From IMG/VR virus record IMGVR_UViG_3300028410_000015: 53,646 nt of DNA. One strand, 5' to 3'. This document shows, piece after piece, positions 11,976-46,639 of the stretch (positions are counted from its first letter, which is position 1; each line of letters starts with the position of its first letter). The notes beneath the pieces were generated by a model. That model was not told the DNA's origin. It was given only the letters and a program-made list of their open reading frames with translations, and searched no databases. The stretch comes from a virus. The position numbers were made by a program, and so were the translations under genes.

Positions 11976-12344
11976 TTATTCGTCAAAAAGTGTTCTGAAG
12001 TTCGGGCTTGTGAGTAATGCGCTGAACATTTGTTCTATTTCACTTTCTGATACGCGCTTGCCCTGCTTGAGAATCTTTTCAAAACTACCTAGTAATCCAG
12101 TGTAGCCGGCAGAATGATGACCAGAACTGAGTATTCCTTGATAAATAGCGTCTACCAAAATTGCGAACTTTTCACTTGAACGAGCAGCTGCTTGTGAAGA
12201 TGCTCCTCTTTGAACTTTTTCGCCATAATCTGCGGGCATTTTTGAGTACCCACGAGTTTTATCAAACTCTGAATCGCCGACAGCTTCTAGAACTTCTAGT
12301 TCTTCCTTAATGATCTGTCTTAGCTTCCCTCTGGATATCTTCAT
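11976..12344 (-). CDS. hypothetical protein carrying the N-terminal (K/R)xIIKEEL leader (MKISRGKLRQIIKEELEVLEAV)
   Basis: ORF track 122 aa, ATG at 12342-12344. One of at least 7 proteins sharing this leader. Confidence 0.55.
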   Translation of the reverse strand: MKISRGKLRQIIKEELEVLEAVGDSEFDKTRGYSKMPADYGEKVQRGASSQAAARSSEKFAILVDAIYQGILSSGHHSAGYTGLLGSFEKILKQGKRVSESEIEQMFSALLTSPNFRTLFDE

Positions 12345-12414
12345 TGTTTACAACCTTTGTTGTTGAGTTCAATGATACATATCTTTCTTTTTCGCAAAGG
12401 GCGAAACTTTTAAA

Positions 12415-12490
12415 ATGGTACACTCGCTAGGAATCGAACCCAGATCTGATCGGGTAGAAACCGACCGCATTATCCCTTATGCTACGAGTG
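12415..12490 (-). tRNA. tRNA-Arg (TCT)
   Basis: Acceptor ACACTCG/CGAGTGT, anticodon loop TTTCTAC, T-arm CTGGG-TTCGATT-CCTAG. Confidence 0.6.
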
Positions 12491-12498
12491 TATATGTA

Positions 12499-12858
12499 TT
12501 ATATATCAATAAAATCGCTTTGATCAAGTCGCATAGCTTCTTTCTCGTCATCAATTCTACTTTGTATGTATGCTTGCTGTTCCTCTTCACCAGCTCTAAT
12601 CTCTCGATTTGATGCATCAAGATACTCTTCATAATCCCATCCGAGATTAGCAGCCACAGCTACTTGATGGACTCGAAGCTCTTTAGGGGTCATTTCTCCT
12701 GTTGCTAATTTTGCTGCTTTTTCGATGTAAAGATCAAGAAGCGCATCTCGTAGTTCGTCAAGAGATCCTTTTCTGACAAGCGCGAGGCTTTCAATTGTCT
12801 CTCTAATTAGCATGCGAACTCGATTCTGTGTTGTATTGTAGCTCATACATCTAAGCAT
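12499..12858 (-). CDS. hypothetical protein
   Basis: ORF track 119 aa. ATG at 12856-12858, or 12844-12846. Confidence 0.45.
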   Translation of the reverse strand: MLRCMSYNTTQNRVRMLIRETIESLALVRKGSLDELRDALLDLYIEKAAKLATGEMTPKELRVHQVAVAANLGWDYEEYLDASNREIRAGEEEQQAYIQSRIDDEKEAMRLDQSDFIDI

Positions 12859-12886
12859 ATCTACATCTGGCTTGTTTTGGTTAAAA

Positions 12887-12961
12887 TGGCGCGCCGAGCG
12901 AGACTTGAACTCACATCTTTTAGGTTAACAGCCTAACGTTTTGCATTAATACTATCGACGC
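12887..12961 (-). tRNA. tRNA-Asn (GTT) with an AT-rich, degenerate D-arm
   Basis: Acceptor GCGTCGA/TCGGCGC, anticodon stem TTAGG/CCTAA with loop CTGTTAA, T-arm GTGAG-TTCAAGT-CTCGC. Confidence 0.55.
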
Positions 12962-13041
12962 ATCTCGGAATGGAACCAGTTTTTAAGTGGATTGACTAGC
13001 ACAAAGTCAACTTACGTCCTAAAGGGTCTCCGCAACCTTAA

Positions 13042-13116
13042 TGGTACTCCGTAGGGGAATCGAACCCCTCTTACCGGTGTGAAAAACCAGCGTCCTAGCC
13101 GCTAGACGAACGGAGC
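13042..13116 (-). tRNA. tRNA-Glu (TTC), second copy
   Basis: Acceptor GCTCCGT/ACGGAGT, D-arm TCGTCTAGCGGCTAGGACG (Glu-like), anticodon stem CTGGT/ACCGG with loop TTTTCAC. Confidence 0.55.
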
Positions 13117-13241
13117 AAAAAGTAGCTGATCGCGCCGCGACGTCCCTCACCGAGAAATGGTAAGGCTGTTCGACCACCAGCACTGGCTAACCACCAGCTG
13201 TTTCTGTAATTATTCGTATAGAGATGTCAAAGAAGCGAAAA

Positions 13242-13332
13242 TGGTGGGCCGCCTGGGATTCGAACCCAGGATGGTGCTTTCACACGTCGGATTAAAAGTC
13301 CGGACCCTTCGGCCAACTCGGGACAGCGACCC
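13242..13332 (-). tRNA. type-II tRNA (Ser/Leu-like D-arm TCCCGAGTTGGCCGAAGGG) whose anticodon loop reads CTTTTAA (TTT?)
   Basis: 91 nt, acceptor GGGTCGC/GCGGCCC, long variable arm, T-arm CTGGG-TTCGAAT-CCCAG. The anticodon stem has one mismatch, so the parse is uncertain. Confidence 0.4.
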
Positions 13333-44460: not shown

Positions 44461-44490
44461 AATGGGAGGCCGAAGCCTCCCCAAAGTCCT
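44461..44490 (-). terminator. rho-independent terminator (GGGAGGC-TTCG-GCCTCCC, then ATTTTTGTTGG on the minus strand)
   Basis: Directly downstream of the 44502..44855 stop. Confidence 0.55.
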
Positions 44491-44501
44491 ATCTAACCGG
44501 C

Positions 44502-44855
44502 TTACTCGCCGCGCTCTGCAACCACCTCTGCCTCGATGAGCGAGGCATCAGCCGCCTGGAGCTTGGCCCAGGTCTTGGCACGGAACACCATGCCGTAAGT
44601 GATGGCAGGAACGCGGTCGCCAACGTCCTCATCTGTGTGAGCGGGGAAGGTCACCGCGCACATGTAGGTGTCAGTCTTCTCGTACACGGCGCAGAGGCGG
44701 ATGGACGAACCCTCGGGGATGTGAACCCACTTTCCAGCAAACTCCTCGTGAGCGTTCAGTGCGGTCTCAGTGCCAGGAATGAAGAAGAGGGCGTTGCCCT
44801 CGGAGGTGCGGGCACGAGTAGAAGCGGCGAGAGTGAAGGTGTTAACGTTGGTCAT
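44502..44855 (-). CDS. hypothetical protein, duplicated cassette gene (paralogue of 47784..48092, about 75% identical)
   Basis: MTNVNTFTLAASTRARTSEGNALFFIPGTETALNAHEEF... against MTNVNTLALTATTRVRTSEGNAFFFIPGTETALTAHEDY.... Confidence 0.5.
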   Translation of the reverse strand: MTNVNTFTLAASTRARTSEGNALFFIPGTETALNAHEEFAGKWVHIPEGSSIRLCAVYEKTDTYMCAVTFPAHTDEDVGDRVPAITYGMVFRAKTWAKLQAADASLIEAEVVAERGE

Positions 44856-45273
44856 GATTGGTACCTCTTTCTTGATTGGTCGTAAGGGTGAGGGTGATTC
44901 CTTCCTTACTTTGTTATTATACTCTATTCTGAAACTTTTTGCACTAGCATCTGAAATTAATTCAGGCTGTACCTACCATGAACATCCAGTATCCAAGGGT
45001 CAAAGTACTAGCAGCCACTGCACGCAAAATACCATGATTTTTAAGAGCAACGTCGACGGTACTCAGTGTCCATGCCGACTTCTTATGTGCTGCGTGCCTG
45101 GTGATGAGATTGACGAGCCACGCGCCGGTGAGCATGTACATGATGATCCAAAAGCCGATGTAGTGTATGATGATTCCTTACTTGTAGTAGTATTAAATGA
45201 TTGGGTTATTCCTAACCATCCGATTATACCATAGGTGGGGGTGATTTACACCACCCCCGCACGATTCTTTCAA

Positions 45274-45519
45274 TCAATTCCAACAACCATCAATTTTTTC
45301 CCAACGACGTTCGGCGAAGTGTGTCTCGTCGAGAGTCGTAGTATCAATGGCATAGTGAAGGAATCGAAGGTCATTTCCGGACCACATATCTTGTCCGTTC
45401 TCATCGTCTGTCATCTCTTCCCACTTTTTGGTGGACTCTTCCTTCGTGTGGAAAAGGTACTTCTCGTAGACTTCACCGTAGTTGATATCAATGACCAGTA
45501 CAATGTAAATCACGTTCAC
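45274..45519 (-). CDS. hypothetical small protein (GTG start)
   Basis: ORF track 81 aa with SD AAGAAAGAGGT. A variant promoter module lies upstream. Confidence 0.4.
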   Translation of the reverse strand: MNVIYIVLVIDINYGEVYEKYLFHTKEESTKKWEEMTDDENGQDMWSGNDLRFLHYAIDTTTLDETHFAERRWEKIDGCWN

Positions 45520-45615
45520 CTCTTTCTTGAGTGGTTGTAGAGGTTAGGTTGATTCCCTCTCTACTTATGTATTATGCTACATGTGGAGGTAATTTACACT
45601 GGACGGCAGAACGGC

Positions 45616-45903
45616 CTACAGCCACTCGTAAAGCGTCTCAGGCGGGAACTCCTCAACGCGCGACGATGTGCCCGAGACGGGATCCATAAAGATTCGCTCC
45701 GTCTGAGTTACTTCACCGCTGTGGAGCTTGACGAACTCTTCAAAGTTGTCGTAGAAGACGCCCGCGCACAGCCATCGACCGCCATGCTTTTCAAACTTGT
45801 CAATGCGTGGAGGCATGTGGTGAGGAGACTTAACAAAAACCCTGAGCCAGCGACGCTCGCCATCACGATCAGTAGCAAGAATGATAGGGTTGAGAATAGC
45901 CAT
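45616..45903 (-). CDS. hypothetical protein
   Basis: ORF track 95 aa with SD AAAGAGGTGATTAC and a promoter module at 45930-45985. Confidence 0.45.
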   Translation of the reverse strand: MAILNPIILATDRDGERRWLRVFVKSPHHMPPRIDKFEKHGGRWLCAGVFYDNFEEFVKLHSGEVTQTERIFMDPVSGTSSRVEEFPPETLYEWL

Positions 45904-45987
45904 GTAATCACCTCTTTGTGAGAGGAAGTTGATTCCTTCCTCTCTCTGTTATTATATCATTCACAGCAGCTTTTTGCACTTGCTGTT

Positions 45988-46239
45988 TTACTTAGGAGGC
46001 GTGCATACCCAACCGGCCTGCTCCAAGATGAAGGCGAGAACGCGATGAGGCACAGTGTGATATAGGCTGCTCTTCTGTCCCGTGTGTCCCCATGTGTACT
46101 CACACTCGACCTCAACCTCACCGGCGCGACTCTTTTCACACGAGATCTTCAAGTTCCGCTCGCTGGTAGAAGTGATGAATCGACTAAATTCGTGCTCGGT
46201 GGTGAGGGTCCAGCTTTCGGGTAGCTCTTGAGTGGTCAT
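45988..46239 (-). CDS. hypothetical protein
   Basis: ORF track 83 aa with SD AAGGAAGGAGGAAACAT and a promoter module at 46250-46295. Confidence 0.45.
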   Translation of the reverse strand: MTTQELPESWTLTTEHEFSRFITSTSERNLKISCEKSRAGEVEVECEYTWGHTGQKSSLYHTVPHRVLAFILEQAGWVCTPPK

Positions 46240-46357
46240 ATGTTTCCTCCTTCCTTGTAAGTCTATTATACTCTACCCACACGCTTTTTGCACCTGTCAA
46301 ACAAAAAACCCCACCACAGCATTGCTGAGTCAGGGCTGAAGTGGGTTGTACCAGTGC

Positions 46358-46639
46358 TTACTTGTAGTTACTGTCGAGTTCGATGTCTCCTGCGAGGATA
46401 AGCACAAGGCGTTCAACGTCTAGACCAGCCTCTTCCATTGCGAGTGCCCACGACATACCTTCGCCGCCTGGGCCGAATGCCTTGCCAGCTAGTGCCTGAC
46501 GAATGACGCCCTTGATTCGCGCTCGCTTCTTGTCTGCAAATGACGACGCTGTGTCGTCTGTTGAATTCCAACCTGCTTCTGACATATTTTCTAACTCTTC
46601 CCTGATGATTCTTTGTAGATGAGCTTGCCTGATCTTCAT
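46358..46639 (-). CDS. hypothetical protein with IIREEL leader (MKIRQAHLQRIIREELENMSE)
   Basis: True start ATG at 46637-46639 with SD CAGGAGACAC. The track ORF extends upstream through the UTR. Confidence 0.5.
   Translation of the reverse strand: MKIRQAHLQRIIREELENMSEAGWNSTDDTASSFADKKRARIKGVIRQALAGKAFGPGGEGMSWALAMEEAGLDVERLVLILAGDIELDSNYK

Follow-up and report, generated by a model that had tools for sequence, protein, structure and literature searches.

A shared N-terminal leader on unrelated phage proteins, possibly a capsid-targeting propeptide analogous to that of T4

Seven Leader ORFs in the Window

IMG/VR virus record IMGVR_UViG_3300028410_000015 is a stretch of 53,646 nucleotides, here called the window, and is a fragment of a huge-phage genome. 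All of its genes lie on the minus strand, and seven of them, encoding otherwise dissimilar small proteins, start with a common N-terminal peptide, the leader, which is the subject of this report. A preliminary description, made from the sequence alone, had listed these seven open reading frames (ORFs) and proposed that the leader was a targeting signal by analogy with the capsid-targeting sequence (CTS) of phage T4. All seven were recovered at the same coordinates (Table 1) and have the form M-x(9–11)-II[KR]EE[LI]. The start Met lies 10 residues before II in five of the ORFs and 12 residues before it in 17768–18124 and 31604–31969.

The window was scanned in six frames with the relaxed core [ILVM][ILVM][KRQ][ED]E[LIVMF], which gave eight matches: the seven leader ORFs and one unrelated short frame. 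Among the 96 minus-strand ORFs of at least 60 amino acids (aa), II[KR]EE[LI] was observed 7 times, compared to a mean of 0.007 upon residue shuffling, and all seven motifs fell inside the first 20 residues of their ORFs. A position-specific matrix trained on 212 independent marine leaders was also run over the window and singled out exactly the same seven, with scores of 15.8 to 38 bits; the next-best position scored 0.8 bits, and the mean over all positions was -48. The Ile, Lys/Arg, Glu and Leu codons of the leader vary between the copies, demonstrating that the conservation is at the protein level. Past the motif, the bodies exhibited no pairwise BLASTP similarity (best E = 0.085 at word size 2), and the seven proteins had no Pfam or PHROG family in common, in agreement with the preliminary description, which had called the downstream sequences unrelated.

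Leader protein 4 is encoded directly upstream of leader protein 3, forming a tandem pair, and has an exact copy on ENA contig ERZ27315555 k141_234856. For leader protein 1, the sole other sequence found among 5.8 billion proteins was a 99%-identical fragment, which is thus the same protein, leaving leader protein 1 as an ORFan. The mechanically called ORF of leader protein 7 extends to a GTG at 46816; the ATG at 46639 is the sensible start, since it has AGGAG 8 nt upstream. This gene follows a degenerate copy (46690–46766) of a sigma70-like promoter element that is described in the last section. The weak candidates in Table 1 include ORF 23741–24010, which is considered weak because its matrix score is within the noise. 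No further leader was found in the 10 kb that were read beyond the window on its contig, a region that contained small ORFs only and no Pfam family. Upstream of the leader genes in the window, a TAGA-type promoter motif did not exceed the opposite-strand background (29 versus 22).

Table 1. Coordinates of the leader ORFs, of weaker candidates and of other genes. Positions refer to the window except where a locus is named. pI, isoelectric point.
Feature	Coordinates	Strand	Length (aa)	N-terminus	Matrix score (bits)	Remarks
Leader protein 1	11976–12344	-	122	MKISRGKLRQIIKEEL, then EVLE...	34–35	ORFan body, pI 5.4
Leader protein 2	17768–18124	-	118	MKVSLTKARIKQIIKEEL...	31.5	Acidic body; adjoins vault-protein operon
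Leader protein 3	31604–31969	-	121	MKTQVKKSTIRKIIKEEL ARVMNE...	33.6	Acidic body
Leader protein 4	31985–32350	-	121	MKIKKAKLVKIIREEL...	22.8	Basic body, pI 9.2
Leader protein 5	33022–33657	-	211	MQIAARKLLAIIREEI...		Body of very large conserved family
Leader protein 6	34307–34633	-	108	MQLKKTRIQQIIREEL QRVLSE...	38	IxE at residues 12–14 and LxE at 20–22
Leader protein 7	46358–46639	-	93	MKIRQAHLQRIIREEL...	32.3	In small-ORF block at 38–53 kb
Possible degenerate leader	12499–12858	-		..NRVRMLIRETI (MSYNTTQNRVRMLIRETIESL)	0.8	N-terminal; best sub-threshold score; noise from about -6
Possible degenerate leader	23741–24010	-		MSHSIKLLRTFLREEI	-7.1	Met exactly 10 residues before FLREEI
NUDIX protein	1104–1658	-		..LRKVLRFMIHEEY / ..SIKSLRKVLRFMIHEEY	-1.2	Leader-like N-terminus, weak candidate
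HD-domain protein	2557–3921	-				
Major vault protein homologue	13768–16446	-	892			
ORF after vault protein homologue	16536–17552	-	338			Two DEARH motifs, no Pfam match
RtcB ligase	22121–23362	-				RNA repair
HAD and CCA-adding enzyme fusion	26811–28622	-				RNA repair
2H-phosphoesterase-like ORF	28592–29068	-				RNA repair; weak match
RNA ligase	38933–39961	-				RNA repair
Second shared N-terminus in phage vB_FspM_immuto	L254: 3180–3728, 18006–18305, 24615–24842					One ORF directly after prohead protease gene

The Leader Family Outside the Window

The peptide in the window is a local variant of a widespread leader that is found on thousands of unrelated proteins of uncultured aquatic phages. 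A profile of the seven N-termini was used to search metagenome proteins, and retrieved short proteins that start with MKITKxQLKQIIKEEL and continue into unrelated sequence. These leaders conform to the consensus MK[IL]TKxQLKQIIKEEL, after which comes a weaker ExVLxE (xxVLxE). The preliminary description had considered that a single conserved domain extending past about 20 residues would point to common ancestry instead of a signal; no such domain was seen, as residues 1–16 are conserved, the conservation is weak from there up to residue 22, and there is none beyond it. A HMMER profile of the leader matched 8,674 clusters (50% identity) at E ≤ 0.001 among 1.84 billion cluster representatives, with the best stretch beginning at residue 1 in 79 of the top 150 matches.

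The DNA pattern for KQIIKEEL matched at least 120 IMG/VR contigs, and 122 leader loci (mean 9 kb; among the matches listed) formed the basis of the neighborhood counts below. In the listed matches from these loci, the nearest Met was exactly 10 residues upstream for 207 of 276 core matches. For KQIIKEE[LF], 127 of the 151 IMG/VR matches listed had II preceded by a Met at a distance of exactly 10 residues, compared to 5 of 120 matches in cellular genomes, and the two convincing cellular cases were contigs binned into metagenome-assembled genomes. The leader is virus-specific and position-fixed.

When 212 leader-protein bodies were clustered by BLAST, they fell into 168 clusters, 152 of them singletons; the median length of 215 unique leader proteins was 110 aa. 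Identical leader peptides were only 89% identical in DNA between loci. An element acting at the RNA or DNA level was rejected on these grounds, together with the variation in synonymous codons. There was a mild codon bias in the leader, with E14 encoded by GAA in 95% of cases versus 68% in the bodies, and the first codons were A-rich. Tandem arrays of leader genes were present in the window (31604–32350) and in loci L063, L072 and L087. Both GAATGGATTA and CTATTTA were enriched 9- to 11-fold in the 80 nt upstream of leader ORFs (L003–L122), which may reflect the late promoter of that lineage; a Shine-Dalgarno-like AAAGGA was enriched as well. The T4 late promoter, TATAAATA (box TATAAAT), was rejected as the upstream element, having been found in only 1 of 224 cases.

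Searching 50,697 deposited phage genomes with the leader consensus returned nothing. A positive control of similar length was found, so the low-complexity filter was not the cause of this blank. The leader motif strings were not mentioned in a relevant context in the literature searched. The T4 principle is known; the leader family itself, its breadth, its presence in a huge phage and the multi-unit ORFs described below are undescribed as far as we found.

Leader Anatomy and Multi-Unit ORFs

Residue frequencies were measured on leaders that had been selected by residues 1–8 only. In these, I12 was conserved in 98%, E14 in 97% and E15 in 95%, while position 13 was freer: K accounted for 83%, and Q, V, L, N, M, Y, A, W and E were found there too. 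A second, weaker L20-x-E22 follows. An I-x-E triplet with a freer middle residue matches, as far as sequence can tell, the form of the (L/I)-x-E site of the T4 protease gp21. The S77 proteases encoded in leader loci begin with M.K.LLRE[FY], to which T4 gp21 MNEPQLLIE-9 and T4 gp24 MAKINELLRE are comparable. Near-invariance of at least six residues over thousands of clusters needs strong selection at the protein level. We make no claim that the leader is amphipathic, since its hydrophobic moment was no higher than that of shuffled sequences.

The top matches to the leader profile hold two to four leader copies each. P0142 (L261:95–1270; checked on DNA) is an uninterrupted ORF of 391 aa that consists of three leader-body units and lies immediately upstream of an S77 protease gene. 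P0149 (L262:2174–3595) is an uninterrupted ORF with four such units, one of which has ACT at the position where the ATG would be expected; P0149 was seen in identical form on two contigs that come from different samples. These ORFs show that the leader works, or at least is retained, inside polypeptides, and the internal copies fit the behavior of a cleavage module.

Leader-Bearing Proteins

The body of leader protein 5 is a member of a family that comprises more than 5,000 clusters, with phrog_7595 at the C-terminal end. N-termini in this family are canonical, degenerate, replaced or absent leaders; the orthologue in Flavobacterium phage vB_FspM_immuto begins at about residue 35, without a leader. 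An AlphaFold model of leader protein 5, based on 66 homologues, had a mean predicted local distance difference test (pLDDT) score of 70 and consists of a separate helix at residues 5–20, a low-confidence linker at 21–27 and a folded body, which had no fold match in the PDB at E ≤ 0.001. Among the longer leader proteins, Pfam identified L,D-transpeptidase (YkuD; L096:6258–7055), GNAT and RNase T-like domains; enzymes of these kinds could plausibly be injected. Otherwise, Pfam and PHROGs gave almost no matches for the window's seven proteins and 81 longer leader proteins. The leader is a portable peptide on hyperdiverse bodies with no shared domain. The earlier proposal of a position-fixed N-terminal peptide on diverse cargo holds up, given that conservation ends at about residue 22 and that orthologues of cargo 5 carry a strong leader, a weak one or none.

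Genes Next to the Leader Genes

Portals made up 36 of the 80 largest ORFs in the IMG/VR leader loci. A T4-type portal (Pfam Portal_T4 on L001) was present in 56 of the 122 leader loci listed, most of them 54–85% identical to the portal in locus L017 and four only 38–47%. A 9-kb piece taken at random from a 140-kb genome would be expected to contain a portal in about 6% of cases, and the observed count corresponds to P = 6e-34. A gp21-type (S77) protease was found in 35 of the 122 loci listed, and in 15 of 30 loci a leader ORF lay within 100 nt of the S77 protease gene. Where the gene order was read, leader ORFs immediately followed the portal and flanked the protease on either side, slots that correspond to the T4 positions of the prohead-core genes 67, 68 and 22. 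Of the head-module ORFs in L068, the protease alone (the S77 gene at L068:4900–5493) was recognized by PHROGs. On two leader-bearing contigs (186 kb and 70 kb), there are genes for Portal_T4, a terminase and a tubulin-like protein; the part of the 186-kb contig that was read includes a Peptidase_S77 gene as well.

The closest cultured portals, from vB_FspM_immuto and Microcystis phage Mel-JY01, were only 38–40% identical. Immuto was the only isolate found with a variant leader, which takes the forms MKKSQLRQIIKEAL, MKKSELVKLIKEEL, MKKSQLREIIRKEL and MKKSQIVKAVQEVLEE; the last of these heads a 73-aa ORF between the portal and the protease. The candidate leader ORFs of immuto (L254) are 1668–2243, 2254–2733, 12562–13320 and 22729–22950. 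The literature searched contained nothing relevant on immuto proteomics. As a separate observation, a second, different common N-terminus, MENxFDLKKFLVENKL / MENNFDIHKWQAKFL, is present on three otherwise different immuto proteins (Table 1). On marine T4-like contigs, a weak tubulin-family ORF adjoins leader genes, together with an SbcCD-like nuclease (L001:8859–10004 and L002:10931–11527).

A Vault Protein Homologue and Genomes Lacking the Leader

The window encodes a homologue of the eukaryotic major vault protein (MVP), with Pfam matches to MVP_shoulder (E = 1.4e-26) and Vault_3 (E = 2.2e-10). Its only matches in deposited phages were in the huge uncultured LR756500, LR756501 and LR756503, at 38–43% identity. 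LR756500, a complete genome of 462 kb, encodes an MVP homologue (43% identity) and two S77 protease homologues; throughout its 462 kb, neither a leader ORF nor a homologue of the window's seven proteins was present. The leader was also absent from Methylophilales phage Melnitz, a T4-like phage cultured from the sea whose genome encodes an S77 protease and cargo 5. No MVP homologue was found in the 122 leader loci, in the 41-kb region of immuto that was read or in Melnitz. The absence of the leader from LR756500 and Melnitz indicates that it is lineage-specific and not tied to the vault protein, and that possession of an S77 protease does not automatically bring the leader with it.

A Putative Capsid-Targeting Propeptide

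The location of leader genes beside portal and maturation-protease genes suggests that the leader is most likely an address-and-cleavage tag for the capsid, that is, a capsid-targeting propeptide that a protease can remove, analogous to the T4 CTS without being homologous to it. We put the probability of this interpretation at about one half. According to this model, the leader would direct unrelated proteins into the core of the assembling prohead and would then be cleaved off by the gp21-type prohead protease behind the near-invariant I-x-E (residues 12–14), behind the weaker L-x-E (residues 20–22), or behind both. After this processing, the bodies would enter the capsid along with the DNA and reach the next host at infection, and the seven proteins of the window would make up the cargo of this kind in the huge phage. 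We infer the binding to the scaffolding core, the cleavage by the protease, the presence in the virion and the T4-type head module in the phage of the window.

The T-even CTS has the sequence MKTYQEFIAE, in which changes at positions 8 and 10 abolish processing but leave targeting intact. The leader consensus, MKITKSQLKQIIKEEL, has only MK and the I-x-E form in common with it and with the N-termini of gp21, gp22 and gp24, which does not amount to homology. The T4 analogy in the preliminary description is supported, though indirectly, by the I-x-E form, by the position of leader genes near genes for a T4-type portal and a gp21-type protease in other phages, and by the multi-unit ORFs. In T4, N-terminal propeptides of 10–19 residues send diverse internal proteins to the core, where they are cut by gp21 (PMC9026906, Section 2.6; PMC3012670; PMC5694885), and the cargo comprises diverse proteins that counter host defenses and have only the CTS in common (PMC3012670; PMC9026906). 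Like the CTS of IPI, IPII, IPIII and Alt, the leader is a short N-terminal peptide on unrelated, fast-evolving proteins and ends in the (L/I)-x-E form; in other leader-bearing phages, a T4-type portal and a gp21-type (S77) protease are present, with leader genes in the head-core slots. The leader differs in being longer, with 14 residues to the first Glu and 22 to the second; in having Glu after the putative site, where T4 has a small residue; in its far larger scale, with seven copies in 54 kb and thousands of clusters; and in its mostly acidic bodies and multi-unit ORFs with internal leaders.

Propeptides have also been described for inner-head and ejection proteins of the giant phages phiKZ, 201phi2-1 and SPN3US, among which SPN3US gp53 and gp54 have identical 15-residue N-termini (PMC5694885). 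There, too, many proteins are loaded into the head, diverged paralogues keep identical N-termini with protease motifs, and the protease is related to T4 gp21 (PMC5694885). However, these propeptides are mostly longer than 100 residues, have the cleavage motif S/A/G-x-E, are common to paralogues only and have no sequence relationship to the leader. Encapsulin cargo peptides and the vault INT domain are similar in principle, since in both cases varied cargo enters a protein shell by means of a tag that is short or modular. The tags of encapsulins are usually C-terminal and require an encapsulin shell gene, and no encapsulin gene was seen. INT is a folded domain, unlike the leader, which furthermore does not co-occur with the vault-protein gene.

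Several observations count against a capsid-targeting propeptide. E14 is followed by Glu in 95% of leaders, in contrast to the small residue after the T4 sites quoted. Scaffold homologues of leader-rich phages (for example L026:556–1581) have a different N-terminus, MSSLLEQAIIDA, and the idea that the scaffold is itself leader-bearing was rejected for this reason. The S77-protease phages LR756500 and Melnitz are wholly devoid of the leader. The bodies are acidic in 65% of cases, unlike the basic internal proteins of T4. The neighborhood statistics reflect mainly one abundant lineage, because the loci were found through the leader search. Neither the window nor the 10 kb read beyond it, out of about 24 kb that remain on the 77.5-kb contig, encodes a portal, protease, scaffold or capsid protein, and the connection of the window's genome to a T4-type head is made through its relatives only. 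The leader genes of the window have tRNA and RNA-repair genes as neighbors, and one belongs to the block whose sigma70-like promoters are probably early.

Should the leader prove to be a capsid-loading tag, a single regular expression would pick out the proteins that are delivered at infection by a large group of uncultured marine and freshwater phages, including huge ones. The matching class in T4 includes anti-restriction and host-modifying proteins. The CTS principle would then extend from a few T-even proteins to thousands of families, and the fast evolution of the bodies would be explained. A more sweeping version, which we regard as somewhat less probable than the propeptide itself, is a universal address-plus-cleavage tag, by which a previously unrecognized arsenal of at least 8,674 clusters would be loaded into capsids and injected by uncultured aquatic T4-like and huge phages, sometimes as polyproteins cut by the prohead protease. 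In that case, the repertoires of injected effectors could be read directly from metagenomes, and the tag of 16–22 residues would provide a packaging handle for phages without a genetic system.

Alternative Explanations

We considered the possibility that the leader is a general interaction helix, mediating self-association or binding a common phage or host partner in the cytoplasm, and unrelated to capsids. The internal leader copies in long ORFs, one of them without a start codon, agree with such a role, as do the cargo-5 orthologues that keep a degenerate leader as if it were part of the protein, the plain helix at residues 5–20 of the predicted model, and the scattering of the window's genes among tRNA and RNA-repair genes, with one in a probable early block. 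However, an interaction helix leaves unexplained the 7-fold concentration of leader genes at the portal and their abutting of the prohead protease gene, as well as the fact that I-x-E, with its freer middle, contains the most invariant residues, and the hydrophobic moment was not above that of shuffled sequences. Of the alternatives to a capsid-targeting propeptide, this is the one that survives best, but we consider it unlikely.

Another explanation is that the leader is a relic of ancestry, in which tandem paralogues diverged in their bodies and kept about 20 residues for translation initiation, mRNA structure or stability. The tandem gene arrays, the mild codon bias and the A-rich first codons would be expected from this. 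On the other hand, unrelated folds and enzymes (YkuD, GNAT, RNase T) are found among the bodies, and the large cargo-5 family also has leaderless members. Moreover, synonymous sites vary freely, as seen in the DNA differences between identical peptides, and residues that are near-invariant across thousands of clusters demand strong selection on the protein. This makes a relic improbable, and more so than an interaction helix.

The preliminary description had also suggested packaging into a vault-like shell, to which the leader would address the cargo, and the window does encode the MVP homologue, with one leader gene adjoining its operon. We rejected vault targeting, which we regard as very improbable, because LR756500 has an MVP homologue and two S77 proteases but no leader or homologue of the seven proteins, while the leader-rich loci and the immuto region lack an MVP homologue; nor did the seven proteins contain a vault INT-like cargo domain (Pfam, E ≤ 1). 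Lastly, a host-directed export or membrane signal (Sec, Tat or lipoprotein), for which the N-terminal position and basic start (MK..K..) might speak, is likewise very improbable, since the leader lacks a hydrophobic core (within the first 25 residues, uncharged hydrophobic stretches are at most 2–5 residues long), a twin-arginine motif and a lipobox Cys, and its positions 14–15 are the acidic EE.

Other Features of the Window

The window contains 36 tRNA genes in about 11.5 kb (8449–19975, minus strand), interspersed with small ORFs that include the genes for leader proteins 1 and 2. The NUDIX and HD-domain proteins listed in Table 1 are encoded near the RNA-repair genes. Tandem small ORFs at 30085–30785 and 34688–37768 (both minus strand) seem, by inspection of the translations by eye, to have GD[LM]I...WGI[VL] in common, which suggests an array of diverged paralogues.

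Between 38300 and 53000, there are 19 minus-strand copies of an intergenic element, which is absent from the plus strand, with the organization GTGCAAAAA - spacer - (T)GGTATAATA - spacer - AAGGAAGGA - ATG. The element precedes most of the small ORFs, reads as a sigma70-like promoter combined with a strong ribosome-binding site, and probably marks an early-gene block. The GC content of this block is about 50%, compared to about 40% elsewhere in the window. It includes two paralogous small ORFs, 44502–44855 and 47784–48092 (both minus strand; MTNVNTFTLAASTRARTSEGNA...), which are 74% identical over 300 nt and whose upstream regions are also repeated, as a 91-nt repeat with 87% identity.

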